From IMG/VR virus record IMGVR_UViG_3300045988_119718, positions 96,001 through 160,000 of that record: a stretch of DNA of 64,000 nt. The stretch is one strand, 5' to 3'. This DNA comes from a virus. Made by a program: the position numbers and the translations under genes. Each line of letters starts with the position of its first letter. Position 1 is the stretch's first letter. The notes beneath the pieces are model-generated. The model was not told the origin of the DNA. It was given only the letters and a program-made list of their open reading frames with translations, and searched no databases. Positions 1 through 64,000 of this stretch are shown here, piece after piece.

Positions 1-1008
1 ACTATTAAACAAGTTAAGCATCAAACTATAGTGCTTACTTATAGAAATAAAAAGTACTATTCTGATACTATAGTTGAAAATAATGAAGATTATACTGTAG
101 AATTAATACCAGACCCTGGATATACTGCTACTTCATTAATTATTAATGGTAAAACTATAAATAGCTTAAAGTATACTGGTAAAGCTGCTGAAGATCTAAC
201 TATAACAGCAGTACAATCACAAGCAGGTACAGATTCTAACTATTTAGAATTTATATTTAAAGAATTTGATTCTAGAATAGAAAGATTTAGTAATAGTGAT
301 GGGAAATTATTAGTAGGTACTCTACAAGAGGTTACAACCATTATTAACCCAGATAAAAACATATGTGAAATTACTATTATACAGTCTGCTAATCAGACCA
401 TCCATGTATATATACCATACAAAGGCGGTACTGACCACACATCTTCCTTTACTTGTCCGTTAGGTACAACCTATGAAGTAGAGGTTATAGCTGATAAGGG
501 ATATATAGCTGGTACACCGAATACCAAGGTAGGAACAATTAATAGCAATATGTCTATTGATGCTAGCCCTGCTGTAAAGCCTCAAATATATATAGCTAAA
601 GGTAGTAGTGGTGGATGGTATAATAAAGTAAACGAAACAATGGAGTGGAAGGATAAATCTCATGTAATTAAAGTAGATGAATCTATACCAGGACAAGCTA
701 CAGTTATCTGTGATGGTAATATAACTAATATGAAGTATATGTTCTATGCATGTAACAACCTCACTTCAATAGACTTATCTAACTTTGATACATCTAATGT
801 AACTAACATGGGCATGATGTTCTTTGGCTGTGATAATCTTACTACTATTAAAGGTGTATTCGATATGAAGTCTTGCACAAATTATGCCGGTATGTTTGCG
901 ACATGTACTAAACTTACTAATGCTAAGATTAAAAATCCGCCAAAGGATACTGATTGGTGGAAAAATGCTGGATTTAACTCTACATCTCAGTTCACTATAG
1001 TATCATAA
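1..1008 (+). CDS. Tail-fibre / receptor-binding protein (5' end truncated by the window edge). Contains a beta-sandwich repeat module (IQSANQTIHVY..GGTDHTSSFTC..GTTYEVEVIA..GY.AG) followed by C-terminal BspA-type leucine-rich repeats.
   Basis: The frame is open back to position 1 (TIKQVKHQTIV...). The repeat module is shared with at least 6 other ORFs in the window. The LRR consensus NLTSIDLSNFDTSNVTNM.. is present. The C-terminus ...KIKNPP....QFTIVS matches ORF 44919..45674. Confidence 0.6.
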   Translation, partial: TIKQVKHQTIVLTYRNKKYYSDTIVENNEDYTVELIPDPGYTATSLIINGKTINSLKYTGKAAEDLTITAVQSQAGTDSNYLEFIFKEFDSRIERFSNSDGKLLVGTLQEVTTIINPDKNICEITIIQSANQTIHVYIPYKGGTDHTSSFTCPLGTTYEVEVIADKGYIAGTPNTKVGTINSNMSIDASPAVKPQIYIAKGSSGGWYNKVNETMEWKDKSHVIKVDESIPGQATVICDGNITNMKYMFYACNNLTSIDLSNFDTSNVTNMGMMFFGCDNLTTIKGVFDMKSCTNYAGMFATCTKLTNAKIKNPPKDTDWWKNAGFNSTSQFTIVS

Positions 1009-1040
1009 GTATAGATTTTTTTTAAAAGGATTTATAAATT

Positions 1041-1838
1041 ATGGCAACAGTAAATATTAAACAACCAAAGAATGCAACTATCCACGTATATACCCCTCAG
1101 AAAAATGGAGGGGTAGATCATACCTCTACTTTTACAGTAGATGAAAATACTGCATATGAAGCAGAGGTTATTGGTGATAGTGGATACTTACCTGGGGATT
1201 TAGGCGTAGGTATTGAAAGAGAAGTTGCTTCTAAAGATTTAAAATATATTTATCTATATAAAAAAAATAAAATTAAAACTACTCCATTATTATTTGGGCA
1301 TAATGATAATTTATTTGTATCTTCATTATATGACCCGAGTAATATAATTTATAGTGGTAACACTAATAACCCAAAGCTTACCAATAATAAATTTATACAA
1401 CCTGAGATATTGAAGTATTATGGGTTTGATTATTTATTTGGATACTTTGACGAATTAGAGGGAAGTTCTATTAGTAGTGCAACTGTTCCTGTTAAAAACT
1501 CTAATTATAGGCTAACTATAAGATTATTAGGGTTTAATCTATTTAAAATGAGTAAGAATTCTAATAAGAAAACTGGTAGATGGGTTATAGGATTTAATAA
1601 AATCGATAATCTGACTATTAATTCTATAACTATGCGTATAGCTGATAGTAATGGTAATGAAATAGCTGTAATTAAAGATTTTAGATATTTAAATGCTATT
1701 CCTGGGGATACCAATAATAGTAATAGAGTACAGATATATTGCACTAGCTCATCGATAAATAATGAATTAGACCCAACCTATTTATACTTATTAGCTAATA
1801 AATCTAATATAGTTAAAGTAGGGTTAGTAGTAGAATAA
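1041..1838 (+). CDS. Putative tail-fibre protein: N-terminal copy of the repeat module joined to an unrelated C-terminal domain.
   Basis: N-terminus NATIHVYTPQKNGGVDHTSTFTV..AYEAEVIGDSGYLPG. An AAAGGA ribosome-binding site lies upstream of the ATG. Confidence 0.45.
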   Translation: MATVNIKQPKNATIHVYTPQKNGGVDHTSTFTVDENTAYEAEVIGDSGYLPGDLGVGIEREVASKDLKYIYLYKKNKIKTTPLLFGHNDNLFVSSLYDPSNIIYSGNTNNPKLTNNKFIQPEILKYYGFDYLFGYFDELEGSSISSATVPVKNSNYRLTIRLLGFNLFKMSKNSNKKTGRWVIGFNKIDNLTINSITMRIADSNGNEIAVIKDFRYLNAIPGDTNNSNRVQIYCTSSSINNELDPTYLYLLANKSNIVKVGLVVE

Positions 1839-1849
1839 AGGAGGATTAA

Positions 1850-3838
1850 ATGGCTAAAAAAGATCTATATTATAATAATAATGAATCTACTAAACAAATT
1901 ATAACAGAAGTAGAATTAGATAACCATAATACTTCTGATAATGCTCATAAAGAAAAATTTGATAAATATACATTACATACTCCTACTGGAATATGGGATG
2001 CAGTATATCAATTAGGCCCAAATTATAGATTTACTGATCAATCTACTAAAGGATTTGCTAAGTTAGGATTATTTGCATCAGTATATGATACTAAAGACGT
2101 ATTTGAATATCAACCTTCTCAGTTTGGCACTTTATTAAATTTACCTACTACTATAAAAGATAGTAATTTTATTACAGTTACCCAGTTATGGTTTGACCAA
2201 TCTGGGGATTTATTTATTAGAACTGGTACTGTAAATAATCCTATTAATAAACTTCAATTTACTAAAGTAACTTTAATGACTGATGTATTTAATAAATATG
2301 GCAATGAATTCCCAGCTACTAATTTAGTTCCTGGTATGTTATTTTATAGGGCTGATGAAAATAAATTATATGTATATGTGCCTAGTGATAGTAACTCTAA
2401 CTGGAAGATGATTTATGATTTAAATAAAGATGCTAATATAGCAGATGGCTTGTCTCATGCTTGGTATAAATTAGACAATTCTACTAATGATACCAGTATA
2501 CCTAAACTAGCAGAGTCTGAAAACATGAATACGTATATTAAACCTGGTGTATACTCATGCATTTCTGGGCAGATAGCAGGTACTTTAGTAAATAAACCAT
2601 CTGGGGCAAATAGTAACTTTAGATTAATTGTAGAAGAAAATACTCCTGGATATGGAGTACAAAAAGTATTTACTAATAATCCTTGTAAAATTTTTATAAG
2701 AGGCTTTAATACTACTAATAATAAAACTACATTTACAGATTGGAAAACTTTAGTAAATAGCACAGATACAATTTTAAATGCAGAAACAGCAACTAGAGAT
2801 AGTGCTGGTAATGTAATAAAAGATACTTATGTTAAGAAATCTGGAGATATCATGACTGGTGGTATTATCTTTAGTAAATCTGCCACTGGTAATAACTATG
2901 TAGGCCCTGGTGAAGGGGATGTAAGTGATGCTGTAGTTGCTAATCAATCTAATTTAGCAATTAATGGATGGCAGACAGTTGGTGTTAGAAAATCTAGCAG
3001 TGACCCATATACAATTAGTATGAATACTAGAACTGGTGATATCCATACTAAAGGTAGCATCAAAGGAGATAGCACCGCTACATTTACTGGTGCTGTAACT
3101 GCACCTACATTTAATGGTCATGCATCTGAAGCTAGTAAAGTATTAGCAACCAATATTTCTCAAGATACAGTATTGATGGAATCTATCCAAACTGATGGGG
3201 ATGGCTCCAGAATTGTCATAACAGGCGTTGGAGACCATCATGATGGTTGTCATTTAAAATTTCAATTAAACAACTCCGATCCTGGTAATATTGGTAGTCA
3301 AGCAAGCTTCTACCTTGAGCAGTACCATGATAATTATCATACATTAGAAAGTAGGGCTACTCTATTAGATTATGCACATAATACGTCTTTCCCAGGGGTA
3401 TTAACCGCAGCTAGAGTAGTAAATGCTCAGTATAATGACTATGCAGAATTCTTTGAACGTGGCGAAGAAACTGAAGCTGGAGATATTATAGCTTTAGATT
3501 TATCATCTGATGAAGAAAGATATGTTAAAGCTACTCCAAAGAATAGAGTTATAGTAGGAATTCACTCTGATGAATATGCCCATATCATTGGTGGTGAAAA
3601 AGATAAAACCTTAGAAGAGAACTTAAAGAATTTCATTCCTGTTGCATTAGCAGGTCGTGTACATGTTAAAGTATCTGGTGTAGTATATAAAGGGGATAGA
3701 ATTGTTATTAGTAATGGTATGCCTGGTATTGGTATAGCTCTTACTAATAATTCTACTTCTAATAAACAAGTAATTGGTATAGCATTAGAGAATAAATATA
3801 ATCTTGGTATAGGTAAGATTAGATTATTGCTGAAGTGA
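1850..3838 (+). CDS. Tail-fibre protein (662 aa) with a conserved C-terminal domain shared with ORF 29345..30418.
   Basis: Strong RBS AAGGAGG. The C-terminal ~110 aa (YNDYAEFFERGEETEAGDIIALDL...HSDEYAHIIGG..EENLKNFIPVALAGRVHVK) is nearly identical in architecture to the C-terminus of 29345..30418. Confidence 0.55.
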   Translation: MAKKDLYYNNNESTKQIITEVELDNHNTSDNAHKEKFDKYTLHTPTGIWDAVYQLGPNYRFTDQSTKGFAKLGLFASVYDTKDVFEYQPSQFGTLLNLPTTIKDSNFITVTQLWFDQSGDLFIRTGTVNNPINKLQFTKVTLMTDVFNKYGNEFPATNLVPGMLFYRADENKLYVYVPSDSNSNWKMIYDLNKDANIADGLSHAWYKLDNSTNDTSIPKLAESENMNTYIKPGVYSCISGQIAGTLVNKPSGANSNFRLIVEENTPGYGVQKVFTNNPCKIFIRGFNTTNNKTTFTDWKTLVNSTDTILNAETATRDSAGNVIKDTYVKKSGDIMTGGIIFSKSATGNNYVGPGEGDVSDAVVANQSNLAINGWQTVGVRKSSSDPYTISMNTRTGDIHTKGSIKGDSTATFTGAVTAPTFNGHASEASKVLATNISQDTVLMESIQTDGDGSRIVITGVGDHHDGCHLKFQLNNSDPGNIGSQASFYLEQYHDNYHTLESRATLLDYAHNTSFPGVLTAARVVNAQYNDYAEFFERGEETEAGDIIALDLSSDEERYVKATPKNRVIVGIHSDEYAHIIGGEKDKTLEENLKNFIPVALAGRVHVKVSGVVYKGDRIVISNGMPGIGIALTNNSTSNKQVIGIALENKYNLGIGKIRLLLK

Positions 3839-3839
3839 G

Positions 3840-5228
3840 GTGAAACTAATAATGGCTGATGATAATATTAAAAGTACTGTAATAAGAAAAGCAAGAGTAT
3901 CATTTGTTAAAGATAATACCCAGAATATTATCCATTATGAAACCGATGCTGATTGTGTTAAAAATCTTAATACGGCTATAGTAAACGGTGTAACTAATGT
4001 ATTTAATAATGATGATACTATTAGAGATATTATTACTAATATAGCTTTAGGTGGTGCTGATTTAAAATCTTATGCTAAATTAGATTCACCTAGTTTTATA
4101 GGAGAACCTAAAGCTCCTACTCCTATTACTTCTGATAACTCTCTTAAAATAGCAAATACAAAATTTGTAAATAATAAGATAGCAGAAATACGTGGTAATA
4201 CTATTGACAGAAACGATTTAAATAATTATGTAAATAAAACTGGTAATGATACTATTACTGGGTTAAAAACTTTTAATACAGATATTAATACTTCTGATAC
4301 TAGTACTATATACTGGAAAACTGGTAATACTACGGTAGCTAGTATAAATAAGACAAATTACACTGGCACAGCTGATAAAGCAGTTAAAGATCAAAATGGA
4401 AATATCATTAATTCTACATATGCTACTAAGGCTGAATTAAATAATAAACAAAATACTTTAACTTTTGATACTACTCCTAAAGCTGGGAGTACTAATCCAG
4501 TAACTAGTGGTGGTATATATAATGCTATTAAAGCATCTGGCAGTATAAGCGGTGATAGTTTAGCTGTAGTAGCTAAAACTGGTAGTTATACAGACTTAAT
4601 TAATACTCCGAGTTTAGCTACAGATTCTACATTAGGATTTACTAAGTTATATAGTTCTTCTGGTTCTAGAAGTGATGGTACTATTACACAAGCTGGTATT
4701 ACTGAGCTTTTGTCATATAAATTAGATAGAGAAAACTTATCTCCTATAGCGTTAAGTGGTGAATGGTCAGATATTTACAATGTACCTGTAGCTAGTGATA
4801 CTACCCAAGGTATTACTAAGCTCTATTCTACAACAGGTACAAACACTGACGGTGCCATATCTCAATACGGTATAAATAATATATTAGCTAATTATGCTAA
4901 GCTAACTGATATTACAGCTGCATATAGATATAAAGGAACTGTAGATAATTATAGTAATTTACCAACTGCACATAAAATAGGTGATGTATATAATATCAAA
5001 AATGCAGATGCTGCTAATAATATTAAAGCTGGGGATAATGTAGTATGGAATGGTACTGAATGGGATAATTTATCTGGTGTTGTAGATTTATCTGCATACT
5101 GTACTAAAGCTGAGTTAGATAAAAAAGCTAACATAGAATCTCCTACATTTACTGGTACTGCAACTGCAAGTAATCTTACAGTTACTAACTCTCTTAATAT
5201 TCCAGGTGGCAAAATCTGGATAGAATGA
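3840..5228 (+). CDS. Tail-fibre protein (462 aa) with Thr/Ser/Asn-rich fibre repeats and the conserved C-terminal tip ...LNIPGGKIWIE.
   Basis: The C-terminal ~25 aa are shared with minus-strand ORF 27220..28506. The low-complexity composition is typical of fibre proteins. Confidence 0.55.
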   Translation: MKLIMADDNIKSTVIRKARVSFVKDNTQNIIHYETDADCVKNLNTAIVNGVTNVFNNDDTIRDIITNIALGGADLKSYAKLDSPSFIGEPKAPTPITSDNSLKIANTKFVNNKIAEIRGNTIDRNDLNNYVNKTGNDTITGLKTFNTDINTSDTSTIYWKTGNTTVASINKTNYTGTADKAVKDQNGNIINSTYATKAELNNKQNTLTFDTTPKAGSTNPVTSGGIYNAIKASGSISGDSLAVVAKTGSYTDLINTPSLATDSTLGFTKLYSSSGSRSDGTITQAGITELLSYKLDRENLSPIALSGEWSDIYNVPVASDTTQGITKLYSTTGTNTDGAISQYGINNILANYAKLTDITAAYRYKGTVDNYSNLPTAHKIGDVYNIKNADAANNIKAGDNVVWNGTEWDNLSGVVDLSAYCTKAELDKKANIESPTFTGTATASNLTVTNSLNIPGGKIWIE

Positions 5229-5243
5229 TAAAAAATAAAATAT

Positions 5244-5275
5244 ATTCTAGATAGCTCATATGAGCTATCTAGAAT
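5244..5275. terminator. Bidirectional rho-independent terminator between convergent genes.
   Basis: Perfect hairpin ATTCTAGATAGCTCATATGAGCTATCTAGAAT with A/T runs on both sides. Confidence 0.5.
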
Positions 5276-5298
5276 ATATAAGTTCAATTAATCGGAAA

Positions 5299-21850: not shown

Positions 21851-22630
21851 TTAATATTTTATCAATAAATAAACTCCATCATCAGGAATATTTGTATTAG
21901 GATAGTATATAGTAATAGTACCAGCTCCACATACGGTTTTTAATATTTTATAGTTATCTAAATCACAAGCTGCGGCTTTATCGGAAGAAGTAATGTCCTT
22001 ATCATCTGTATATACATAATGTGCTGTCGTACCTTCTATTACCCAATCAGCTTTATCTGTACCTGTTCTAATACTACTTCCGCCGCATAAAAGAATCATT
22101 AATGATTGCTCATCAATAGATGATGATGAACCAGCGTTTTTTAAATCATCTTTTGTAGCTAATTCGCTACCTTTATAAGTGATAGTCTCACCTTCACCCA
22201 TATCCAATAATGTCTTAGTACCACTCTCTGTTATAGAGTTTACCTGTAAACCACCATTCATAATGATTTTAGACTGATTGGTCTGTTCTCCATGAGTGAT
22301 TACGGTTTCATTGTTGACCACAGGATGATTAAAAGTTGTATCAGAGTTTACCTGTATTTCTTTTACGTTAAAATCTAAAGCACCATTGAATTCGGTATGT
22401 CCGTTAAATGTTACTTGACCATCGAACTCTGCTAAACCTTCAGCAAATACATTATTACCATTTAAAGTATTATCACCAATTAAGTTTACTTTCTTGTCTA
22501 ATTCAGCTTTAATTACTTTATTTTGTACAGCATTAAGGCTGGTATCAGATAAAGATTCATCTAATTGTGTTGTTGGAGAGGAGTAAATATTCCCCCCCCC
22601 CACAATAACTCCAGATATTGTTTGTGACAT
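21851..22630 (-). CDS. Tail-fibre-like protein (259 aa) whose N-terminus belongs to the polyG family (MSQTISGVIVGGGN...). It is in frame (ON) as sequenced.
   Basis: A G10 tract sits at codons 10-14. The N-terminal motif is shared with the small paralog family. Confidence 0.5.
   Translation of the reverse strand: MSQTISGVIVGGGNIYSSPTTQLDESLSDTSLNAVQNKVIKAELDKKVNLIGDNTLNGNNVFAEGLAEFDGQVTFNGHTEFNGALDFNVKEIQVNSDTTFNHPVVNNETVITHGEQTNQSKIIMNGGLQVNSITESGTKTLLDMGEGETITYKGSELATKDDLKNAGSSSSIDEQSLMILLCGGSSIRTGTDKADWVIEGTTAHYVYTDDKDITSSDKAAACDLDNYKILKTVCGAGTITIYYPNTNIPDDGVYLLIKY
22592..22601 (-). repeat. Homopolymeric G10 tract (C10 on the plus strand) inside the 5' end of gene 21851..22630.
   Basis: Read directly from the sequence. 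Confidence 0.9.
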
Positions 22631-22924: not shown

Positions 22925-23356
22925 TTAATAATCAGTAACTGTTGGGGTATGAGTATTAATTTCAGGAGACCATGAAATTGTGAAACTGAGCCGATCGGCA
23001 CCATCTGCATTATACTCAGTCTCCCCGATCCAGTATACCAACTTATTTGTACCAGTAACTACGTTATACAAAACTGCATCCATATAGAATGATTCTTGTT
23101 CATCTTGCATTTTGTATTGCAATTCACCAGTAAGCCTATATTCACGGGAAGGTGTTACCCCCACGAAAGTGGTTTCATCAATTTCATTACCATAATAATC
23201 AATACCATACAACCTTGCTTTAACAACTTTTACATTTGGGAGGGGGTAAATACACCCATATGATTAAAATTAGTAGACCCAGTAGGTATACTTACAGTTG
23301 CTGGAGAGGCACTAAATACTACCCCCCCCCACTACTCCCTTAATCGTTGTTGCCAT
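22925..23356 (-). pseudogene. PolyG-family small protein (MATTIKGVVGGG...SPEINTHTPTVTDY) disrupted by two frame changes as sequenced.
   Basis: The true ATG at 23356 has RBS GGAGGAA. Frame is lost at the G9 tract (a G8 or G11 would be needed). It is lost again at CCCCCTCCC (23238-23246), where +1 C is needed. The annotated 95-aa ORF is only the 3' two-thirds, starting at TTG. Confidence 0.5.
23322..23330 (-). repeat. Homopolymeric G9 tract at the 5' end of the disrupted family gene.
   Basis: Read directly from the sequence. Confidence 0.9.
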
Positions 23357-25295: not shown

Positions 25296-25698
25296 TTAAT
25301 AATCTGTTATTGTAGGTGTTTTTTTGTTAATTTCTGGTGACCATGATATACGATAGGTAAAGCTATTAAATTCTCTAAGCGGTACTCCATGCACCATCCA
25401 ACTCATATTATCATGTGTGCTGCATTGCACGCCAAAAACCATTGTCTGCCCCTGTCCATGAAAAAAACTTTTGGGTTTATGATATGATCCAGGAGTAACC
25501 CCTATATAAACAGGGTCTAAAGTAAAGATGCCACCACTAACATCCATTGTTAGGCTTAATGCAAGTATGTGAACATTAGCTGGGATAACAAAATTAGGTA
25601 AATCACCTTCATAACTCCCAGTAGGTACACTCACGGTAGCAGGACTAGCACTAAACGTCGTCCCCCCCCCCAATTATACCTTTTAATGTTGTAGCCAT
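25296..25698 (-). CDS. PolyG-family small protein (MATTLKGIIGGG|TTFSASPATVSVPTG...SPEINKKTPTITDY); phase-OFF as sequenced (G10).
   Basis: An upstream ATG with an RBS gives MATTLKGIIGGGDDV* at G10. G9 restores the full 134-aa protein. The ORF-track model starts at a TTG immediately 5' of the tract. Confidence 0.5.
25662..25671 (-). repeat. Homopolymeric G10 tract.
   Basis: Read directly from the sequence. Confidence 0.9.
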
Positions 25699-25719: not shown

Positions 25720-26105
25720 TTAATAATCAGTATCGTCTGGTGTGTGAGTATTAATTTCAGGAGAATAATATATAGTTACCCCTTCTATATCATTTTCATC
25801 ATTAACATCCTCAATTTTCCAACTAGTAATTTGATGTATATTATGGGTAAAACAATAAATACCATATACCATAGTATGATGAGGTGGTATATAATCTGTT
25901 TGAAGTCCCCATACATGTGTTGAGCCAGGGGTAACACCCACGTAAAATCCACGTACATAAAGTACCTTTATTCCATTTGGAACTGTAAATCTTTCTGAGC
26001 TATCTGGGCCTATATATATGCTTCCACTCGGTATACTTGCAGTTGCTGGGGTGACACTAATAGTTACCCCCCCCCCCATATAGTTCCTTTTAAAGATTGT
26101 GACAT
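25720..26105 (-). CDS. PolyG-family small protein (MSQSLKGTIWGGG|VTISVTPATASIPSG...SPEINTHTPDDTDY); phase-OFF as sequenced (G11).
   Basis: The RBS-proximal ATG at 26105 reads MSQSLKGTIWGGG* at G11. G12 or G9 restores the frame. The ORF-track model starts at an internal ATG embedded in the tract. Confidence 0.5.
26067..26077 (-). repeat. Homopolymeric G11 tract.
   Basis: Read directly from the sequence. Confidence 0.9.
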
Positions 26106-26123: not shown

Positions 26124-26544
26124 TTAATGATCAGTTACGGTAGGAGTTTGCTTATTTATTTCAGGAGAGTATTTTATATAAAATCTATCTATTTTGCAAT
26201 CTTCGCCTTCTCTGGTTTCAGCATTTACATAAGTATAGTATTTTTTATTTGGAATTACTCCAACGTATACTGTGTGACTAGTAATGCCTTCGCCAGTACT
26301 ATAGATCCATTGACCGCTACTACTATCTACGGTTAGAACTACAATATGTTCTGTACCACTACTAATATAGGCAGATGCATAAACTTCAATCACTTTTACA
26401 CCATTAGGAATTATAAAGTCATCATTAAGGCCGTTTTCATCATTAGATCTATCCACTAAATATCCAGTTGATACAACTATTTCAGTAGCGGGACTAGCTG
26501 TGAATGTTAGCCCCCCCGATTGTTCCCTTCATCGTTGTAGCCAT
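26124..26544 (-). CDS. PolyG-family small protein (MATTMKGTIGG...LTFTASPATEIVVSTGYLVDRSNDENG...SPEINKQTPTVTDH); phase-OFF as sequenced (G7).
   Basis: The upstream ATG at 26544 has RBS AGGAGA. G7 gives MATTMKGTIGGANIHS*. G9 or G6 restores the frame. Confidence 0.5.
26511..26517 (-). repeat. Homopolymeric G7 tract.
   Basis: Read directly from the sequence. Confidence 0.9.
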
Positions 26545-26755: not shown

Positions 26756-27232
26756 CTACTTAGCAATCTTAGAAGCTGATTTCTCAGCTTCTGATTCTAT
26801 TTTTGATCTATTCATAATTACATATTCTTTATCATATTTACTTTGCTGCCATTTATGAACTAATTCATGACAAAGTATTTCTTTTTGTTTATTTATAGAT
26901 AATCCTGATTTATTAAGAAAAATCTTATTAGTATTCCATATTCCACATGCATATGAAGTTCTTACTAATCTATTAGCCATATCTTTAGAAAGTTTATTTT
27001 CTATTAATATTTCTCTATATTCTTTATCTGTATTGGAATAGTATACTTCTAAATCTTCAAATTTATAATTTAAACATGACTCAGTATTTGCAATACACCA
27101 TTCAAAAATAGCTTTATCTTGTGTATTAGCATTTATTAGATTATGAGCACTTATAGATATAAATTGCAAATTTAGTAGTAGAAATACTAATAAGATAATT
27201 CTAATAATTATAAATCTCATTATTCTATCCAA
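26756..27232 (-). CDS. Secreted or membrane-anchored putative zinc metallopeptidase (158 aa) with an HExxH motif.
   Basis: N-terminal hydrophobic signal or anchor. HELVH motif (CHELVHKWQQ). Confidence 0.45.
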   Translation of the reverse strand: MDRIMRFIIIRIILLVFLLLNLQFISISAHNLINANTQDKAIFEWCIANTESCLNYKFEDLEVYYSNTDKEYREILIENKLSKDMANRLVRTSYACGIWNTNKIFLNKSGLSINKQKEILCHELVHKWQQSKYDKEYVIMNRSKIESEAEKSASKIAK

Positions 27233-28506
27233 ATCTTACCACCAGGAATATTTAAAGTGGTAGTAGCAGTTACAGTAGCTGCACTAATTCCTGTGCAAGC
27301 AGTTGGTACACCATTAGTAAAGTATACAGGTTGAGTAGTGCTACCAGCATTAGAAGTTAATTTATTAGCAGCTGCTGCATTAGCAGTCTTACCTAAGTAA
27401 GTATTTGATGCGTCTGTTTTGGTTAAATATCCACTTAAGTCTAATTTCTGTGTTCCTAGCTGTTCCCATTTACTATTTACATAGATATATTCAGTATACA
27501 GGTTTTGAGTATCATTACCTGTCTTTTTCAAATAAATAGTAGTATCAGAAATATTAGTAGTTGGTAAATCATTTACTACAGCAATAGCAAATTTAGGAAT
27601 AGAAGAAATCTGAGCATTAACTTCACCCTTAGTATAGTAATTGCTTAAAGATTGATGGGAAGTAAGTGGAGTAATGCTATTAGCACCAAGAGTAATTACA
27701 CCATTAGCAATCTTAGCATCGGTAATACCATAACCAGATAATGTAGTAGGATTAGTACCAGCAGTTACATGCCCTTGAGCATTAACTGTTACAGATTTAT
27801 ATGTACCCGCAGTTACACCAGAATTAGGGTGAGTATATACTGTGTTAGTATCTGTACTTGAAATAGTAATTACACCATTAGCATCAGATGTAACTGTAGT
27901 AGCACCAGTACCTACAATCTTATGGGAATCTCTTACAGTGCAATTATCTAATACATTAAGGTATACATTGCCATTGCTAGCAATAGCATTAGATGTAGCG
28001 GAAGCAGTTGCACCTACTTTTAAACCAGTAGTATAATGGGTAAGATGAGCAGGAGGGGTATATCCTAAAGCACCAATTACATTATCCGCAGTAAGACTAA
28101 TAGTACCTGTATCTACAGTAATATTAGAGCCTACTTTAACACCACCCTTAGTAGTGGTGTTAGCATCAGGAAGAGAATATACTGTATCTGTAAATTTAGC
28201 ATTAGCTGGTACATTGCTTAATACAGTATGACCATTTACTGTACTAGCATTACCGCCATTAGCAGGTAGCGAAGTAGGAATAGCTACTGATACACTTTTA
28301 CTACCATCATAACTAGCTGTAGAACCACCAGTAAATGAAATAGCATTAGGATTTTTAAGTGAAGTAGGAGTTCCTTTTAAATCAGAGTAATTACCAGTTG
28401 TAGCTACTTTAGATAGTGAATCTTTGGTTGCATATTTGCTATCAGAATTAGTTACCAAACGCTTCAGTGTTTCTATAGTAGCAACAGGTTTAGATAATCT
28501 TGTCAT
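27220..28506 (-). CDS. Tail-fibre protein (428 aa) with a Thr/Gly/Asn-rich shaft and C-terminal ...TLNIPGGKIWIE.
   Basis: Shares its C-terminal tip with 3840..5228. Confidence 0.55.
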   Translation of the reverse strand: MTRLSKPVATIETLKRLVTNSDSKYATKDSLSKVATTGNYSDLKGTPTSLKNPNAISFTGGSTASYDGSKSVSVAIPTSLPANGGNASTVNGHTVLSNVPANAKFTDTVYSLPDANTTTKGGVKVGSNITVDTGTISLTADNVIGALGYTPPAHLTHYTTGLKVGATASATSNAIASNGNVYLNVLDNCTVRDSHKIVGTGATTVTSDANGVITISSTDTNTVYTHPNSGVTAGTYKSVTVNAQGHVTAGTNPTTLSGYGITDAKIANGVITLGANSITPLTSHQSLSNYYTKGEVNAQISSIPKFAIAVVNDLPTTNISDTTIYLKKTGNDTQNLYTEYIYVNSKWEQLGTQKLDLSGYLTKTDASNTYLGKTANAAAANKLTSNAGSTTQPVYFTNGVPTACTGISAATVTATTTLNIPGGKIWIE

Positions 28507-29344: not shown

Positions 29345-30418
29345 ATGGATCAAAACTCTACAGATTGGCGTTCACAACAATTCTTTGTTACTAAGAATGG
29401 TAAAAAAGAATTAATACATATAGAAACTGATACTAAAAATATTGTAGACTTCTATACAGGAGTAATAGCAATTATTAATAAATTAAAAGGCATAGCTAAT
29501 GGCTTAGCTACATTGGATGCAAATGGTCATGTACCGCAAGACCAATTAAACAATATTGAACAGCAATTAAAAGATTTAGAGAAAAAACTCACCAATCTTA
29601 TCAATAACAACAATACTAAGCTAAATACAGATTTAGCAAATGCAGTTAAAGAATTAAAAGGCTTAATATCTGCATTAGATGCAAAGTCTGATGGAGCTTA
29701 TGTTAAAAAAGTAGGGGATACAATGACTGGTTCATTAACATCCACTGTACAATCCACTACTTGGGTTAATGGTATGAAAAATGCGGCTTTAAATTGTAAC
29801 TTTAGTTCTTATTCTGCTATAGCTAATTCTCCTTCTAAAAATGGTAGATTTTCTATTTCTTCTTATCCTGACCAAAATAATAATTTCTATATTTCTTATA
29901 TGACGCAGGATAAAATAAATGCTGATACTAATGCTACTGATAAGCAATTAATTTGGAGTGGTGATACTGGTGTATTGACTTGTACTAAAGTAGTCAATTC
30001 AGTATATAACGACTATGCCGAATTATTCCCTAAAGGTGAAGAAACTGAACCAGGGGATTTAATTGTATTAGACTTAGATTCTAAAGAAGAAAAGTATGTT
30101 AAATCTAGTGCTAAAAATACTAGAGTAGTGGGTGTTCATTCAGATGAATATGCTCAACTTATTGGTGGAGATAATGTTTCATTAGAAGAAAATCTTAAAA
30201 ACTATATTCCTGTATCTTTAGCAGGACGTATTAGGGTTAAATTTATTGGTATATCAAAAAAGAATGAATATGTAGTAGCTGATACTCATAATCCTGGTGT
30301 AGCTAGATTATATTATAAGGATTTAAATAAACCAGAAGATATTATTGGAATACTTGTAGAGGAAGATTCTAATACCAATCCAAATGAAATTAGAAGATTA
30401 AAAATAAAACTTAAATAA
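29345..30418 (+). CDS. Tail-fibre-like protein (357 aa) with an N-terminal coiled coil and the conserved C-terminal domain shared with 1850..3838.
   Basis: C-terminus YNDYAELFPKGEETEPGDLIVLDL...HSDEYAQLIGG...EENLKNYIPVSLAGRIRVK. Confidence 0.5.
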   Translation: MDQNSTDWRSQQFFVTKNGKKELIHIETDTKNIVDFYTGVIAIINKLKGIANGLATLDANGHVPQDQLNNIEQQLKDLEKKLTNLINNNNTKLNTDLANAVKELKGLISALDAKSDGAYVKKVGDTMTGSLTSTVQSTTWVNGMKNAALNCNFSSYSAIANSPSKNGRFSISSYPDQNNNFYISYMTQDKINADTNATDKQLIWSGDTGVLTCTKVVNSVYNDYAELFPKGEETEPGDLIVLDLDSKEEKYVKSSAKNTRVVGVHSDEYAQLIGGDNVSLEENLKNYIPVSLAGRIRVKFIGISKKNEYVVADTHNPGVARLYYKDLNKPEDIIGILVEEDSNTNPNEIRRLKIKLK

Positions 30419-33735: not shown

Positions 33736-36573
33736 TCATTTTTTATTTTTATACTCTATCTCATAATGATCGAAATAGTAACCAGCTTTAGGCTTAGTTG
33801 AGATATTAGCTATTCTATTTCTGATAATAGAATACTTAGTATCAGATACTTTATCTACATTAGTTACGTCTATCTTAGCTTCATTAGCTTCAGAATTATC
33901 TATAGTAATATATACAACATCTGGAACAACTTTAGTAGCACCTATAGTAATATCCTCTGTAACTTGAATAGAAGATACTATATCATGCTTAACTCCATCT
34001 TTACCATAATAATACAAGCTACCAGCTATATAACCATCTTTAATAGATTTAACCGATACTCTGCAATATTTATTATAACCAATAGTAAATTTATTAATAC
34101 CTTTGCTATTAGTTCTAGGAATACCTTCAGCAGTAACTGTAATCAATTCATCTATGGTAGCTTCAATGGTAATATTATATCTTATATCAGTAATCTTAGT
34201 AGAATATATTATAGTATCTTCAGTTACATCTGCTTCAGTTATATTCAATACCCCTTTATTAAACCCTTCTGCAATATAAGTTATTTCAGCTCTTATATGA
34301 GGATATCTAGAGTTTACTACAAATGAGGCTGTATGCGATTCTTCTACACCATCCTTTAAATTATAGACAGTAATAATCTGATTTTGTACCTGATTAATAA
34401 TTACATTGTATTCTTTATAAGATGCAGGAGTAGCAGTTAAAGTAGTATTGCTAGTAATAACTGCTTTAGTAACACTAGGTGTACCTGGAGTATATTTATA
34501 CTTTCCATCTATAGCTTCAGTTCTTACTGTAATTAATGAATACTCAGGTACTTCAAAAGATTCAGTATAAGTTTTACCATTACATTCTACTATAATTCTC
34601 TGATTTGTGTATTTAGTTATATTTACTTTATAAATAGGGATATTAGAGTAGTCTATATCTAAAGAACGTTCTTTATGGGTTAGTATTAATCCATTATTTT
34701 CTTTTCTAATAAGTTCGTTTAATTCATTCATTCCATCAGTATCGAATTCAAAATAATGAGCATAGAAGTCATCTACATTATTGTTTGATAATATCATATC
34801 ATTCAAACCTTCATATTTAACATCTACGACTCTATTTATATTTAGATATGAATCTATAAACTTACTTACTATCTTTTCAGCGTTAATATTTACAGTACAA
34901 TTTAAATCCTTAGATATAATTCTTCTTTTATCTACAGTATAAAAGTCATATAAACTTTTATAACCTTTTGGAATTTTACTATCAAACTTAGATTCTCCAA
35001 AATTAAATGTGCCTGTTACTTTATTATTAAATACACCTTCATCGTGTATAAAGAAATATGGATATTGTATTTTACCATTATCATCTTTATTAAAATCAGA
35101 GAAGTCTATATTCTCTTTGGTGTACTTTAAATTTAGAGAAGCTAGTTTAATACCTTCTATATAAATATCCATAAGATTATTACCTAAATCTAAAGCTACT
35201 CCTATAGTATTCCCTTGTTCTGGAGATATAGAAGTTTCTACATTCTCTAGATAATGTAAATCGTTCTTATCAGAATTTTGCGTAGAATGTCTTACTAAAT
35301 GAAATAAATAAAATCCACCAGAATTATCCAATCCATTAGGAATAAAACAATTACCTCTATATAGATTTACTCTAATAGATTCAGTCATTATAGTATTAGG
35401 ATTAGTAACTTTTTCTTGACTAGGTTCACCTACTAAAGGAACACTAGTTATACCCATAGCAATAGGTATACCTACTATTCTATCCTTTAATTCCCCTTCT
35501 TTAACTGTATATTCAAAGTATACTTTATCTGTAGTAGGTATAGGATAATTTATATATACATTACCACCTACTTTATAAGAGTTCGTAATACCATACTTAT
35601 TATCTTCACCTGTTTCAAAATCATAATCAGCTTTGATATAAGTATTAGCATTCATATTATATTTATTACTTTTAGTAGTAATAAATTCTGGATCATCTGT
35701 TACTAAAGTTAAATTATCTGTATCTGGTTCTAATTCATTTTCTACAGATAATTCTCCATCCCATTGGATACTATAGGGGTTAAATATATCACCACTTATA
35801 TAAACATAGCATGGATTATCATCTGACCCTAATTCTGCATGTATTTCTTGGTCAGCCATACGTTCATAATATGCTTTATATAATGAATCATATCCTGGTA
35901 CTGGATGGGTTAATCCATTCTTACCAAAATTTACATATCCTGAAATATGTTTTAAATCATCCATAGAAGCTATTCTAAAATTATAATCTTCTTCTATATA
36001 TTTATAATTTATATTACTATATATACAAAAATACATATTAGGTTGTTCAGCTAAGTTAAATGGAGGTGTATATGAATAAAATGGTTTATCATATTCTCCA
36101 TCATAAGGATACTCATTGTTATAGTTTACAAACAGTTTAATTTTATTAGTATGATAATCTACTGCTACTCCTATAGTGTCTCCGATACCAGGTTTTCTTG
36201 TTCCTATAACACTATTACCATCAGCATCTATGCTGCTACCATCTATATACAGTACATTATCTGGTATTTCATTAGACAGTATTTCATATCTAGGGTCAGT
36301 TACATCATAGAATAAAGATGATATAGCATAATCTGCTATTAATACACCCAATGAAGGCTCTCTACTAATTCCTACATATAACGGAATGTGTTGTATTTTA
36401 TTTATAGGGTAATAATCAGTTATATTTATTTCAAACATTGTTTTATTTTTAATAGGGAGATTAGCTATTAAAAAGAATGGTTTATCATAATCAAAGTGTA
36501 ACCCATCACTAGATAAAACATTATCTAATGGAGAGCTATTTAAATCATATGACTTCATTAATATATTATTCAT
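33736..36573 (-). CDS. Large structural protein (945 aa) with C-terminal tandem divergent copies of the repeat module; a baseplate or fibre candidate.
   Basis: C-terminal NQIITVYNLKDGVEESHTASFVVNS...AEITYIAEGFNKG and further degenerate copies. Confidence 0.5.
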   Translation of the reverse strand: MNNILMKSYDLNSSPLDNVLSSDGLHFDYDKPFFLIANLPIKNKTMFEINITDYYPINKIQHIPLYVGISREPSLGVLIADYAISSLFYDVTDPRYEILSNEIPDNVLYIDGSSIDADGNSVIGTRKPGIGDTIGVAVDYHTNKIKLFVNYNNEYPYDGEYDKPFYSYTPPFNLAEQPNMYFCIYSNINYKYIEEDYNFRIASMDDLKHISGYVNFGKNGLTHPVPGYDSLYKAYYERMADQEIHAELGSDDNPCYVYISGDIFNPYSIQWDGELSVENELEPDTDNLTLVTDDPEFITTKSNKYNMNANTYIKADYDFETGEDNKYGITNSYKVGGNVYINYPIPTTDKVYFEYTVKEGELKDRIVGIPIAMGITSVPLVGEPSQEKVTNPNTIMTESIRVNLYRGNCFIPNGLDNSGGFYLFHLVRHSTQNSDKNDLHYLENVETSISPEQGNTIGVALDLGNNLMDIYIEGIKLASLNLKYTKENIDFSDFNKDDNGKIQYPYFFIHDEGVFNNKVTGTFNFGESKFDSKIPKGYKSLYDFYTVDKRRIISKDLNCTVNINAEKIVSKFIDSYLNINRVVDVKYEGLNDMILSNNNVDDFYAHYFEFDTDGMNELNELIRKENNGLILTHKERSLDIDYSNIPIYKVNITKYTNQRIIVECNGKTYTESFEVPEYSLITVRTEAIDGKYKYTPGTPSVTKAVITSNTTLTATPASYKEYNVIINQVQNQIITVYNLKDGVEESHTASFVVNSRYPHIRAEITYIAEGFNKGVLNITEADVTEDTIIYSTKITDIRYNITIEATIDELITVTAEGIPRTNSKGINKFTIGYNKYCRVSVKSIKDGYIAGSLYYYGKDGVKHDIVSSIQVTEDITIGATKVVPDVVYITIDNSEANEAKIDVTNVDKVSDTKYSIIRNRIANISTKPKAGYYFDHYEIEYKNKK

Positions 36574-43337: not shown

Positions 43338-44444
43338 TTATCTCATATTATTCATATCTAAAATATAGTTAATCACTGGAGCAATAGCAGCAGCTTTAGC
43401 TTCTGCTTTCTCTTCTTCTTCTTTTTTAACGTATTCTTCTGTTTTCCAGTTCTGAGGAATTGTAGTATCTTTATAAACTTCGTTTACAAATTTACCACCA
43501 TTGATAGTAATAGAAGCTGTATCTTTATTGGTTACACCAGAAAGTTCAATATCGAAAGTACCATTCTCAATCGTAATCTTAGCTGATTCAGTCCATTTAG
43601 TACTTGTTCCTGGAAGAGTTTCAGGAGCTGAGGAAGATTTATCATATTCTACAGCACCTACTACTTTACCAGTGAAGTCCTTACCAAAAGTAATTACTGG
43701 AGCAGCATTATAATACTTCTTTAATAATCCATAATAGCAGTCAAATGCTACTCTACGGAATCCATCAGTATTAGGTGCATTGATAATTGTATTACCTTTG
43801 CAAGTTAATCCACCATAGTTATTGGATACTGCATATGCACACTGAGTTCCTTTAGAAATATCTACAGTTACATCTTCTAATACTAATTCAGAATAGTTCT
43901 GAATAAACATTTTGCAATTTGCAAAGTTAGTAGTAAGAGTACCATTCTTAAAAGTAACTTTACAACCTTCCATAAGTCTAAATGCAATAGTCTGATATTT
44001 AACACTAGCACCTACTAATGGAAGTTTAGAAACATTTACGGTATGACCATTTAAATCAAATGTAATGTATCTATCTTGAGTATGGTCATTTTCTACACCA
44101 ACTTGAGTACCACAAGTATCAATATCTTCTAAAAGAGTAATTGTAGTTTCAGTCTTAGGTTTAGCTGCATTTACTGCTTCTTGGAAAGTAGCATATTTTA
44201 CACCATTAGATTCAATTACATATTTTACAGCTTCAGTAGCACTAAATTCAACAGTAGTATCTGATTCTGCTACAGTATAAGTCTCTTTATTTAAAGTACC
44301 AGCTTTATAGCCTTCACTAGCTACAATAGAAGCAATGAGTTCTTTACCAGTTTCTACAGTATCACCATCATGATAAGTTTTAGAATCTAAATCTGAAACT
44401 GTAATAACCTGATTAGCAGATTGAATAATTTTTAAAGTTGCCAT
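43338..44444 (-). CDS. Tail-fibre-like protein (368 aa) with an N-terminal repeat module.
   Basis: LKIIQSANQVITVSDLDSKTYHDGDTVETGKELIASIVASEGYKAGTLN. The C-terminus is acidic and Ala-rich. Confidence 0.45.
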   Translation of the reverse strand: MATLKIIQSANQVITVSDLDSKTYHDGDTVETGKELIASIVASEGYKAGTLNKETYTVAESDTTVEFSATEAVKYVIESNGVKYATFQEAVNAAKPKTETTITLLEDIDTCGTQVGVENDHTQDRYITFDLNGHTVNVSKLPLVGASVKYQTIAFRLMEGCKVTFKNGTLTTNFANCKMFIQNYSELVLEDVTVDISKGTQCAYAVSNNYGGLTCKGNTIINAPNTDGFRRVAFDCYYGLLKKYYNAAPVITFGKDFTGKVVGAVEYDKSSSAPETLPGTSTKWTESAKITIENGTFDIELSGVTNKDTASITINGGKFVNEVYKDTTIPQNWKTEEYVKKEEEEKAEAKAAAIAPVINYILDMNNMR

Positions 44445-44464: not shown

Positions 44465-44893
44465 TTAATAATCGGTTAAAGTAGGAGTTTTATTATTTAT
44501 TTCAGGAGAATATTTTATATAAAATCTGTCTATATAAGATTCACCACCACGAACACCAACGTACACCCTAATAGAGTATCGCTTATTCGGAGTTACACCA
44601 ATATATCCTAGAAATGAAATCGTCTCGCCATAATCACCACCACGGTACCATTGTTTGTTATTACTAAATACAGTCATACAAACTGGGTAATCCTCCTCGT
44701 GAGACGAACTAGCACTTGCATATACTTCAATCACATGTATACCATTAGGAATTGTGATAGTTCTAGTAATATCATCATTATAAGTATTTTGTTCATTTAC
44801 CAAATACCCTGTTGGTATGCTTACGGTTGCTGGGCTAGCCGTGAATGTTAGCCCCCCCCCAATTATACCTTTCATTGTTGTAGCCATATACAA
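44465..44893 (-). CDS. PolyG-family small protein (142 aa, MYMATTMKGIIGGGLTFTASPATVSIPTG...YSPEINNKTPTLTDY); phase-ON as sequenced (G9).
   Basis: Intact ORF with the family N- and C-terminal motifs. Confidence 0.55.
   Translation of the reverse strand: MYMATTMKGIIGGGLTFTASPATVSIPTGYLVNEQNTYNDDITRTITIPNGIHVIEVYASASSSHEEDYPVCMTVFSNNKQWYRGGDYGETISFLGYIGVTPNKRYSIRVYVGVRGGESYIDRFYIKYSPEINNKTPTLTDY
44852..44860 (-). repeat. Homopolymeric G9 tract.
   Basis: Read directly from the sequence. Confidence 0.9.
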
Positions 44894-44918: not shown

Positions 44919-45674
44919 TTATGATACTATAGTGTATTGTGATGCAGATAATCCAGCACCATCGAATCCTGCTGGTGGATTCTTAATCTTAACATTTCTA
45001 AGTTTATGAGAATAGTTAAACATTTCATTCCAATGCTTGCATGATTTCATATCAATTACACCTTTAATGGTAGTAAGATTATAGCATTTATAGAACATCA
45101 AGACCATATCAGTTACTTTAGAAGTATCAAAATTAGATATGTTCAATGTGGTAAGATTATCACAGTTAGAGAACATAGAGGCCATACTTTCTACATTAGA
45201 AGTATCGAAGTTGGATAAGTCTAACGATGTAAGATTACGACAATCCCAAAACATACCTTCCATAGTATACACATTAGAAGTATCAAAGCTAGATACATCT
45301 AATGAAATAAGTTTAGAGCAGTTAGAGAACATAAATTCCATATCTATTGCATTAGAAGTATCGAAATTAGATACGTTTATTGAAGTGAGTTTAGGGTGAC
45401 CATAGGCATTTTTAAACATACCTTCCATAGTATATACTTTAGAAGTACTAAAATTAGATAAGTCTAATGAAGTAAGATTATCAGTGCAGTGACCAAACAT
45501 ATAGCTCATACTCATTACAAAACCATCACATGTAACTGTAGCTTGACCTGGGACTGATGTATCTATTTTATCCACACAGGATTTATCATCCCAATTATCA
45601 TTATACCATGGACTAGAACCTTTAGCTATAAAAATTTGATCTTTGAAGGCTGCATAGCTAACAGTAATAGTCAT
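44919..45674 (-). CDS. BspA-type leucine-rich-repeat receptor-binding module (251 aa). As sequenced it is a separate ORF lacking an N-terminal anchor domain.
   Basis: Tandem LRRs (LTSLDLSNFDTSNV..M..MF). Collinear with the C-terminal half of ORF 1..1008. There is no Shine-Dalgarno site other than the G-tract itself. Confidence 0.55.
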   Translation of the reverse strand: MTITVSYAAFKDQIFIAKGSSPWYNDNWDDKSCVDKIDTSVPGQATVTCDGFVMSMSYMFGHCTDNLTSLDLSNFSTSKVYTMEGMFKNAYGHPKLTSINVSNFDTSNAIDMEFMFSNCSKLISLDVSSFDTSNVYTMEGMFWDCRNLTSLDLSNFDTSNVESMASMFSNCDNLTTLNISNFDTSKVTDMVLMFYKCYNLTTIKGVIDMKSCKHWNEMFNYSHKLRNVKIKNPPAGFDGAGLSASQYTIVS

Positions 45675-45685
45675 ATCACTATTAA

Positions 45686-63779: not shown

Positions 63780-63795
63780 ATATAATAAATTAATA

Positions 63796-64000
63796 ATCTG
63801 TAACAGTAGGAGGTATTTTATTTATTTCAGAAGACCAAGACATAACGACACTAACACCACCAACTTCTTCACCAAAGTCGGATTCGTATGTAAGTTGTAA
63901 CTCATATGTTTTTTTAGGTGTCACACCAACATAGCTAATACTAGTAGCTGAGTCACCATAACCAGTAACAGATGCCCAGATATTACTAGAACCACCAAGC
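63796..64000 (-). CDS. 3' portion of another polyG-family small protein (...MSWSSEINKIPPTVTDY*); its 5' end lies beyond the window.
   Basis: C-terminal family motif S.EIN...PT.TDY. Confidence 0.45.

Follow-up and report, generated by a model that had tools for sequence, protein, structure and literature searches.

A candidate phase-variable receptor-binding kit with poly-G tracts at stalk-head joints in an uncultured jumbo phage

Introduction

The stretch of DNA considered here, referred to as the window, comprises 64,000 nt of the IMG/VR record IMGVR_UViG_3300045988_119718 (positions 96,001-160,000) and carries a set of fibre and head genes built around a repeated module of about 70 residues. 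Runs of guanine stand at the joints between the module-built stalks and their distal heads, and we propose that these genes form a phase-variable (contingency-locus) receptor-binding kit, i.e., the poly-G system of the Fletchervirus type in a new form, a reading to which we give a probability of roughly 0.65. The module, in one to five copies behind an N-terminal anchor, would act as a stalk carrying one of several head types at its distal end. Slipped-strand mispairing in replication would alter the length of the G run (7-13 G) at the joint, and each change in length would put single heads in or out of frame, so that the phage population would hold mixed head repertoires as a form of bet-hedging on host range. 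A sequence-only reading of the window had described a recombining arsenal of adhesins. The shuffling that it saw is borne out, but recombination as the sole process is not, and the poly-G switches at the joints had been missed.

The phage is a low-GC jumbo phage of ~250 kb belonging to an uncultured clade, since contigs of 230-260 kb from metagenomes carry relatives of the window's proteins, a human-metagenome contig of 252,690 bp in ENA matches nt 35686-56708 with 100% identity, and no isolate matched. Neither megablast of nt 1-12000 nor tblastn of fibre protein L (described below) found a match among 50,697 phage records, and on these comparisons the clade appears to be missing from isolate collections. 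The window has a GC content of ~29%. Its genes encode a divergent DNA polymerase of family B, a helicase and a large terminase, along with multisubunit RNA polymerase beta/beta' in several pieces. An alternative genetic code had been suspected from the low GC and jumbo size, and was found to be unneeded given the long uninterrupted open reading frames (ORFs) under code 11.

Results

Poly-G tracts at stalk-to-head joints

The window holds seven poly-G tracts, at 22592, 23322, 25662, 26067, 26511, 44852 and 45689, with lengths of 10, 9, 10, 11, 7, 9 and 9 G, respectively. All seven are on the coding strand of minus-strand genes, share one sequence context and stand at stalk-to-head joints, and every one of them is in a head or fibre gene. 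Runs of nine or more G are expected about 0.005 times by chance in the window, and GGG makes up 7.8% of the 631 glycine codons in 28 other ORFs of the window. The genes concerned are given below, with ON and OFF denoting tracts that leave the head in or out of frame.

45686..46708, minus strand: L, an N-terminal anchor motif of ~55 residues followed by four modules, the fourth ending in a poly-G loop before its last two strands
45689..45697, minus strand: L/K tract, G9; 9 or 8 G give L alone, 10 or 7 G an L-head fusion
44919..45688, minus strand: K, a DUF285/BspA leucine-rich repeat (LRR) head whose frame opens inside the last module of L (VINSDMTITV...)
44465..44887, minus strand: jelly-roll cassette, leader MATTMKGII, G9 at 44852-44860, ON
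26124..26544, minus strand: jelly-roll cassette, leader MATTMKGTI, G7 at 26511-26517, OFF
25720..26105, minus strand: jelly-roll cassette, leader MSQSLKGTI, G11 at 26067-26077, OFF
25296..25698, minus strand: jelly-roll cassette, leader MATTLKGII, G10 at 25662-25671, OFF
22928..23356, minus strand: jelly-roll cassette, leader MATTIKGV, G9 at 23322-23330, OFF
21851..22630, minus strand: stand-alone fibre-like head of 259 residues, leader MSQTISGVI, G10 at 22592-22601, ON
63793..63999, minus strand: C-terminal part of a cassette, its 5' end and any tract lying past the window

Six of the tracts come after a Shine-Dalgarno sequence, a start codon (ATG) and a leader of nine codons (MATTMKGII or a variant of it, of the form M-x-T-T-x-K-G-x-x), and the stand-alone tracts are followed by (L/V)TF(S/T)ASPAT... 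and then the head domain. K has neither a Shine-Dalgarno sequence nor a leader of its own. The L-K junction reads AGT GGG GGG GGG TAA, and one added G fuses the two genes (...LNVSGGGVINSDMTITV...), as in the related proteins P0002 and P0014, in which K is joined to L. Two tracts are in frame in the window (22592 and 44852) and five are out of frame. When placed on the structural model of the module, the G run of the fused genes corresponds to the loop that precedes the last two strands of the module, and that of the stand-alone head genes to the turn between those two strands.

Length variation and frame states

Assemblies that are at least 99.8% identical provided ~66 kb of close alignments, and all seven indel columns in these fall in tracts. 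Locus L018 differs from the window by no substitutions and three indels in 9.4 kb, every indel being in a tract, and L009 (99.94% identical) differs by 11 substitutions and one indel in 18.5 kb, the indel being at the L/K tract. This tract has 9 G in the window and in L010-L012, 8 G in L009, 10 G in L013 and 7 G in L014. L is unfused in L009, fused to the LRR head in L013 and fused to a jelly-roll head in L014. In L015 the tract is interrupted (GGGAGGGGGG), leaving the gene fused and locked. The same locus (nt 10001-12927) has no stand-alone cassette between its locked L-LRR fusion and the module gene J; one or two are present there in relatives whose tract is uninterrupted.

The stand-alone tracts vary in the same manner. 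Tract 22592 has 10 G in the window and 11 G in L019 and L020, tract 23322 has 9 G in the window and 8 G in L018, and the cassette at 25662 is OFF in the window with 10 G and ON with 9 G in the otherwise identical L018 and L022. Tract 44852 has 9 G in the window and at least 10 G in L011 and L012, contigs that end inside it; contigs L002, L011, L012 and L021 all have an end in a tract or beside one. The window is identical over 21 kb to ENA ERZ27229725:k119_143398 (L010), and in the region of 19-29 kb (L018) three poly-G tracts set that record apart from it, so the window represents another copy, or another assembly, of this genome.

Across all loci the stand-alone tracts (n = 30) run from 7 to 13 G, and 8 of the 30 are in frame. 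ORFs of 114-143 codons stay open downstream of all tracts, the 23322 cassette having a second frameshift, and dN/dS among cassettes is 0.28-0.68, an OFF/OFF pair included; these open frames and ratios argue that the OFF cassettes are not ordinary pseudogenes. Only 33 of the 88 cassette protein clusters have the leader at their N-terminus, the other 55 having been called from alternative or internal starts, which is the footprint of OFF alleles. Additional tract searches consisted of a loose DNA pattern scan of IMG/VR, with mostly unrelated matches, and an exact-pattern metagenome scan that added three loci only.

The stalk module

A hidden Markov model (HMM) of the module was built from the four copies of L only, later iterated, and then rebuilt without the copies of two divergent ORFs, I and J. 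The ORFs that carry the module in addition to L are as follows.

1..1008, plus strand: A, the 3' part of a gene cut by the left edge of the window, with two modules and a DUF285/BspA LRR head
1041..1838, plus strand: B, an N-terminal module (residues 4-55) without its last two strands, then a domain of ~200 residues
23386..24750, minus strand: E, an N-terminal domain of ~75 residues and five modules, the last cut after strand 5 (...GYLPGDLSVK*)
33736..36573, minus strand: I, 945 residues, a weak SPRY-like N-terminal part and three degenerate modules at residues 655-886 (nt 33916-34611)
43338..44444, minus strand: J, one complete module (residues 4-73) and a C-terminal domain of ~290 residues of no assigned family

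The L-only HMM matched the four copies of L (E 1e-43 to 1e-36), A (6e-36), B (2e-23) and E (1e-31), together with weaker copies, and gave 1e-3 for I and 9e-4 for J. The profile without I and J still finds I (1e-11, 4e-7 and 3e-3) and J (2e-12). In total, ~16 copies in six ORFs (two in A, one in B, four in L, five in E, three in I and one in J) were significant by profile search, as the sequence-only reading had expected for each ORF that it listed. Its count of at least eight ORFs did not hold; eight can be reached only by counting the fragments of two module strands with which K and the cassette genes begin.

In A, a degenerate module (residues 1-70) and a canonical one (residues 124-192, nt 370-576) precede the LRR head (residues ~200-335), with E values for the modules of 1e-30 and 4e-11 on the profile rebuilt without I and J. 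Full-length orthologues of A are P0029-P0031, and C-terminal halves are swapped among A orthologues. The B module (E 5e-16) covers profile positions 1-49, and no Pfam family matched the C-terminal ~200 residues of B. The orthologues of E form more than 80 clusters of 454 residues; some (P0037, P0053, P0116 and others) have a hypervariable insert in the first module that is absent from E of the window, and several of these inserts contain HQGGGG, possibly a further in-frame G run. J adjoins cassettes in all relatives.

An AlphaFold2 model of two consecutive modules (L modules 2-3; pLDDT 95) has seven beta strands per module and no helix, and the PDB structures that it matches best are stalk domains from pili and adhesins of Gram-positive bacteria (PitA, TIE, SdrD B, Cna B and pilins); the TM-scores are low because two domains were modelled together. 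The earlier suggestion to predict the repeat structure thus yielded a seven-strand, all-beta domain of ~70 residues resembling stalk domains. InlB is absent from the 50 best PDB matches, which are stalk domains of the pilin, CnaB and SdrD-B types, and searching PDB sequences with the module profile gave nothing significant.

The module had also been said to recall the InlB B-repeat, the fold of which is a beta-grasp (PMC12415215); the module model has seven strands and is helix-free. Pfam and PHROG searches with the window's module copies returned only sub-threshold noise (DUF3244, MrpH_C and Ig-like families), and no window protein matched PF18998 (Flg_new_2) at E <= 0.1 or reached its gathering score. 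One of 18 two-module segments, taken from a distant relative, matched PF18998 (4e-6). An exhaustive profile search found 706 cluster representatives with the module, some proteins carrying up to 12-19 copies, and 10 of 94 representatives of the module family pass PF18998 (best E 3.8e-17). The stretches so matched coincide with those of the module profile (P0310, 176-251 against 196-247; P0386, 436-491 against 434-509). Because these segments of relatives pass PF18998 in register, the module appears to be a divergent branch of the InlB B-repeat/Flg_new_2 'periscope' spacer superfamily. The suggested resemblance is therefore upheld by transitive homology through relatives, the window copies themselves staying below Pfam thresholds.

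The number of modules varies in L orthologues of related phages (two, three or four), the modules lie between an N-terminal anchor and a variable end, and the fold resembles stalk domains. For these reasons the module is more likely a stalk or spacer than a binding determinant, and its earlier description as a receptor-binding part is not supported.

Head domains

The distal heads are of three types, i.e., DUF285/BspA LRRs, a jelly-roll 'cassette' family of ~125 residues and fibre-like domains. K passes the cut-offs of both LRR families (PF03382, 121.7 bits against 25; PF13306, 33 bits against 27.7), and A that of the first (44.6 bits), with 23.9 bits on PF13306 being under its cut-off; A and K are 49% identical across 139 residues. 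BspA-type LRRs, named in the sequence-only reading as partners of the module, are thus confirmed. The same reading had joined the module to a tail-collar domain, which no module ORF carries, and the Gp10_C-like protein M is free of modules. Its wider picture of a large fibre repertoire, shuffled across several loci, agrees with the varying modules and ends of L orthologues and the swapped C-terminal halves of A orthologues.

Orthologues of L end in three ways: at SGGG (340 residues), in a DUF285 LRR (515-595 residues) or in a domain of ~105 residues (460-468 residues in all) that closes with ...SPEINxxTPxxTDY. The last of these domains is also encoded by small ORFs of the window (22928-23263, 25299-25673, 25723-26130, 26127-26528, 44468-44893 and, in part, 63793-63999), and the cassette 25720..26105 has a homologue in P0003, as the C-terminal head of an L fusion. 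The partial copy at 63793..63999 is 35-39% identical to the cassettes 44468-44893 and 26127-26528. This jelly-roll family is confined to the phage clade, where it makes up the 88 clusters mentioned above. A model of the cassette at 44465-44887 (pLDDT 85) shows an eight-strand jelly-roll after ~20 disordered N-terminal residues, with best structural matches that are weak but coherent, among them the phi812 spike knob, the end of lambda gpJ that binds the receptor, heads of the C1q/TNF type and tail-fibre or host-specificity proteins of phages. The cassette 22928..23356 is probably decaying, given its second frameshift at a C5TC3 site.

A 30-residue open fragment at 21643-21732 on the minus strand, 79% identical to the C-terminus of K, is an apparent relic of a lost LRR head. 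It sits downstream of ORF 21851-22630, and a T10 run is found at 21622-21631.

Docking of free heads

Tentatively, and with the odds somewhat against it, the stalk module may be a split domain that free heads complete when they dock non-covalently. The frameshift at the G tract would cut the last module of the stalk protein after strand 5 (in L when OFF, in E permanently), and stand-alone heads, which open with strands 6-7 and carry their own tract in the hairpin turn, would complete it. One socket-or-fusion gene and six or more plug genes, each switched independently, would then give a combinatorial, heritable and reversible choice of heads on one scaffold.

The register of the sequences is consistent with such docking. 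Truncated stalks, namely E, the OFF form of L and a protein of a Megasphaera prophage with the ending ...GTLSVN*, are without the last two strands, their profile matches stopping at positions 49-54, and the N-termini of stand-alone heads align to profile positions 52-69, starting at 52-53. This head segment is disordered when a head is modelled alone. The proposal is weakened by the 24 of 145 family representatives that end in a module truncated at the same point, since a terminal module may be stable without its last two strands; the last hairpin may then be a mere inter-domain linker.

Donor-strand complementation in chaperone-usher pili, where an incomplete Ig-like domain is completed by the N-terminal extension of the next subunit, offers a functional analogy. 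In both an N-terminal extension would complete an incomplete domain, an idea that derives here from sequence register alone. Unlike in the pili, two strands (a hairpin) would be donated rather than one, and neither chaperone nor usher takes part.

The same design in Dialister and Megasphaera

A 258-residue protein with an E-like N-terminal domain, a module, a tract and a head is encoded both on phage contigs of 44-49% GC and in a Dialister sp. isolate, on its chromosome. The N-terminal domain of this protein is 38% identical to that of E, and its single module matches the window's at 77% identity; the tract, of G7-G8, stands at the same codon and is followed by a jelly-roll head. Both in-frame and out-of-frame alleles occur at these loci. 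The Dialister locus lies in a prophage, after a 2321-residue tail protein and tail-fibre genes and before the holin and endolysin genes. A position between tail-fibre and lysis genes is classic for a receptor-binding protein. Split stalks and heads without a G tract occur as well, in Megasphaera (head segment MATIKGTVNKNLSISASAATV) and in Dialister-type phages (the second head starting with MKSGTFTSDTQFTAT...).

A Negativicutes host is a reasonable, though unproven, guess for the phage of the window, since the Dialister prophage shares the design and homologues of the C-terminal domain of fibre proteins C and H (see below) are labelled Dialister, Acidaminococcus and Fusobacterium. The window has no tRNA genes, which were sought as a clue to the host.

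Module-free fibre proteins and their C-termini

Further fibre or tail proteins of the window are free of the module.

1850..3838, plus strand: C, fibre protein with a T4 gp36-like stretch (PF03903, 27.7 bits) and a C-terminal Peptidase_G2-type domain
3840..5228, plus strand: D, tail-fibre protein (PHROG tail-fibre families, E to 7e-11) ending in LNIPGGKIWIE
27220..28506, minus strand: F, fibre-like protein ending in LNIPGGKIWIE
29345..30418, plus strand: H, fibre protein whose C-terminal 145 residues (nt ~29969-30400) are a chaperone-type domain as in C
46720..47742, minus strand: M, Gp10_C-like baseplate or tail protein (PF21939, 28.3 bits; PHROG tail, 3e-16) directly upstream of L, with an N-terminal motif of ~38 residues in common with L

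Two pairs of these proteins, C with H and D with F, had been thought to share C-terminal tips. The similarity of C and H stands, with 50% identity across 145 residues (E 7e-41; nt ~3395-3829 in C), but not the role as a tip. The C-terminus of C scores 21 bits on PF11962 (Peptidase_G2; E 2.4e-4), below the cut-off of 25, H alone has no Pfam match, and most of 80 homologues of the domain (48-60% identity) carry PF11962. The prototype of this family is the phi29 pre-neck appendage (Pfam description). By analogy, the C/H domain would be a Peptidase_G2-type intramolecular folding chaperone, of the kind that is cleaved off in characterised relatives, rather than a receptor-binding tip. C and H resemble the family in that their C-terminal ~145 residues are homologous to PF11962-annotated proteins and differ from its members in the sub-threshold score of C and the missing match of H. 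A search of C against PDB sequences gave nothing significant.

The shared tip of D and F was rejected, as they have only their last 11 residues in common (LNIPGGKIWIE; 5193-5225 and 27223-27255), encoded by synonymously differing codons. Related endings (...NGSELWIE* and ...DGKQIWVE*) close Dialister-type fibre proteins (fibre genes of L004, L005, L007, L008 and L016), and the motif also closes a small ORF after each prophage fibre gene. A 42-residue stretch of F (residues 119-160) is 74% identical to residues 363-404 of a fibre or head-fibre-like ORF at 50590-51831, and GC reaches 0.39 at 50-52 kb against ~0.29 elsewhere in the window.

Other features of the window

Three radical-SAM ORFs (36652-37812, 38994-40046 and 40892-42322) lie on the minus strand between fibre protein I and an amidase endolysin, alternating with a 395-residue ORF and two paralogues of ~140-160 residues (40028-40519 and 40504-40917; 38% identical). 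This cluster (36652-42322) is kept in all relatives and may be a peptide- or nucleotide-modification cluster. The large terminase (8941-11220, minus strand) is matched by terminase profiles in two separated stretches, residues 22-188 and 468-603, which suggests that ~280 inserted residues, an intein or some other insert, separate the ATPase part from the nuclease part. ORFs resembling RNA polymerase beta/beta' (14980-17139, 55394-56773 and 58756-61068) recall the multisubunit polymerases of phiKZ/AR9-like phages, and an HNH endonuclease (60016-61068) directly adjoins one of them. Small paralogous ORFs stand in tandem at 20116-20496 and 20525-20899 (53% identical) and at 57305-57772 and 57944-58378 (34% identical).

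Discussion

Competing explanations

The window has tracts beyond chance in fibre genes, length polymorphism and the toggling of an intact frame, as expected of a system of the Fletchervirus type. The tracts could also be no more than flexible glycine linkers, their length differences and OFF states being errors of sequencing or assembly and the heads being constitutive. Homopolymers of G9-G13 are indeed hard to sequence, contigs break at the tracts, and in-frame alleles encode GG to GGGGG in a loop that tolerates a variable number of glycines. Yet GGG, a rare codon at 7.8%, is the sole glycine codon at the joints, also in lineages of very different GC; in many independent assemblies, drawn from different studies, about two thirds of the instances are out of frame; the L/K state tracks distinct, stable gene calls in many clusters (340-residue against 460-595-residue forms); and one relative has an interrupted, locked tract. 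We therefore consider the linker explanation improbable. Much the same weight attaches to the tracts being programmed recoding sites, at which RNA polymerase slippage or ribosomal frameshifting would set a fixed ratio of short to fused product with no heritable switch in the DNA. The tail assembly chaperone pair G/GT is an example of a programmed frameshift with such a fixed ratio, a short L/K product with a longer frameshifted fusion resembles known phage frameshift pairs, and jumbo phages use unusual RNA polymerases of their own. What makes recoding an unlikely account is that length polymorphism is seen in the DNA, and as the sole indel class, that stand-alone heads would require recoding within 10 codons of their start, that orthologous tracts occupy all three frames, which a fixed recoding signal would not tolerate, and that prophages with the same design are transcribed by the host polymerase. 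DNA slippage and recoding could coexist.

The leader with its G tract and the conserved 3' end (...SPEINxxTPxxTDY) might instead be mainly recombination joints for the exchange of cassettes, with frame states that are incidental, which is in essence the view of the sequence-only reading. Both ends of the cassettes are conserved as DNA around divergent cores, leaders of different cassettes are 96-97% identical across ~62 nt, and heads are fused or free and swapped between orthologues. Recombination needs no homopolymer and leaves the selective use of GGG unexplained, near-identical genomes differ in tract lengths and not by cassette swaps, and the cassettes are all co-directional, so that recombination in place of switching has little probability; the joints are compatible with phase variation, and probably both operate. 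Switching by invertible segments or retroelements was considered and rejected, as there were no convincing inverted repeats and no recombinase (invertase) or reverse transcriptase among the ORFs scanned, which left out some small ones. The least plausible account takes the out-of-frame cassettes to be pseudogenes decaying after duplication, so that only in-frame genes matter. It can point to the second frameshift of cassette 23322, the 30-residue LRR-head relic at 21643-21732 and the 26511 tract, which is OFF in four close genomes. The remaining cassettes keep 114-143 open codons, for which the chance is ~5e-5 by our estimate for a random frame at 29% GC, their dN/dS is below 1 with the OFF/OFF pair included, and cassette 25662 is ON (9 G) or OFF (10 G) in otherwise identical assemblies, all of which argue against decay.

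Several observations count against the proposed phase-variable kit. Both the location of these proteins in virion fibres of the jumbo phage and the binding of receptors by their heads are inferred from context and from weak fold matches (TM ~0.5) only, and switching at a high rate within the population is likewise inferred. Long G homopolymers are error-prone in sequencing and assembly, and part of the length variation could be technical. The 8 of 30 stand-alone tracts that are in frame equal the expectation for unconstrained lengths, so nothing in the consensus states points to selection for ON. In four of four near-identical assemblies the 26511 tract has 7 G and is OFF, and cassette 23322 looks dead. 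The links to Dialister and a Negativicutes host are indirect, with 29% GC in the phage against ~48% at the prophage locus.

Comparison with known systems

Campylobacter phages of the Fletchervirus type, so far the main documented case of such bet-hedging, have poly-G tracts of 7-11 G in the genes for their receptor-binding proteins (Sorensen et al. 2021, Cell Rep 35:109214, as cited in PMC12633550). According to that citation, changes in tract length shift the frame and create sub-populations with different receptor use; in the present case such sub-populations are predicted from sequence. The two systems are alike in having runs of 7-11 G inside phage receptor-binding genes, here predicted ones, and in the low GC of the genome. 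Unlike Fletchervirus, the carriers here are a ~250-kb jumbo phage and Dialister-type prophages, none of them a Campylobacter phage; there are at least seven tracts in 64 kb, fixed in the structure at two loops of a single stalk module; and they control an interchangeable family of heads that includes stand-alone heads with a nine-codon leader. New with respect to the known poly-G systems are the many tracts, their fixed position in a B-repeat-like module, the fused and free heads, and the conservation from jumbo phage to Negativicutes prophages.

Short homopolymers in genes of T2, T4 and other phages allow frameshifts that can be reversed, a form of bet-hedging (Gomez, Barrick and Waters, bioRxiv 2025, PMC12633550), and repeats of at least 6 bp are under-represented in coliphage tail fibre genes (PMC12633550). 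Homopolymer frameshifts in phage genes are common to these contingency loci and the present system; unlike in the coliphages, long G runs are concentrated here in fibre-head genes.

The invertible segments of Mu (Gin) and P1 (Cin) and the diversity-generating retroelements of Bordetella phage are programmed means of tail-fibre diversification. These systems, named together in PMC12823448, resemble the proposed kit in providing alternative receptor specificities in one genome with stochastic switching. They differ in mechanism, since here the length of a homopolymer would do the switching and none of their components were found in the scan described above.

InlB B-repeats are 'periscope' spacer domains of Gram-positive surface proteins (PMC12415215). 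Like them and Flg_new_2 domains, the modules of the window are tandem units of ~70 residues that would project a functional domain, often alongside LRR domains, and relatives of the module pass PF18998 in register. They are unlike them in that the window copies stay below Pfam thresholds, that the closest PDB structures are those of pilins, CnaB and SdrD-B, and that the setting is one of phage fibres.

Significance

Little is known about the ways in which uncultured phages of the gut deal with host surfaces that are variable or phase-varying. The clade described here is present in many human-gut metagenome assemblies, and hypermutable switches appear to be concentrated in its interchangeable heads. 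This would extend the poly-G paradigm of Campylobacter phages to jumbo phages and Negativicutes prophages. There is a practical side to the finding too: fibre genes of the clade are systematically mis-called as split or truncated ORFs, and the combination of module, G tract and head provides a sequence signature with which such systems can be sought in metagenomes. If the docking of free heads were true, the plug-and-socket design would be common to a gut jumbo phage and to Dialister and Megasphaera prophages, and it would represent a natural modular swap of receptor-binding domains without covalent fusion, of relevance to host-range engineering.

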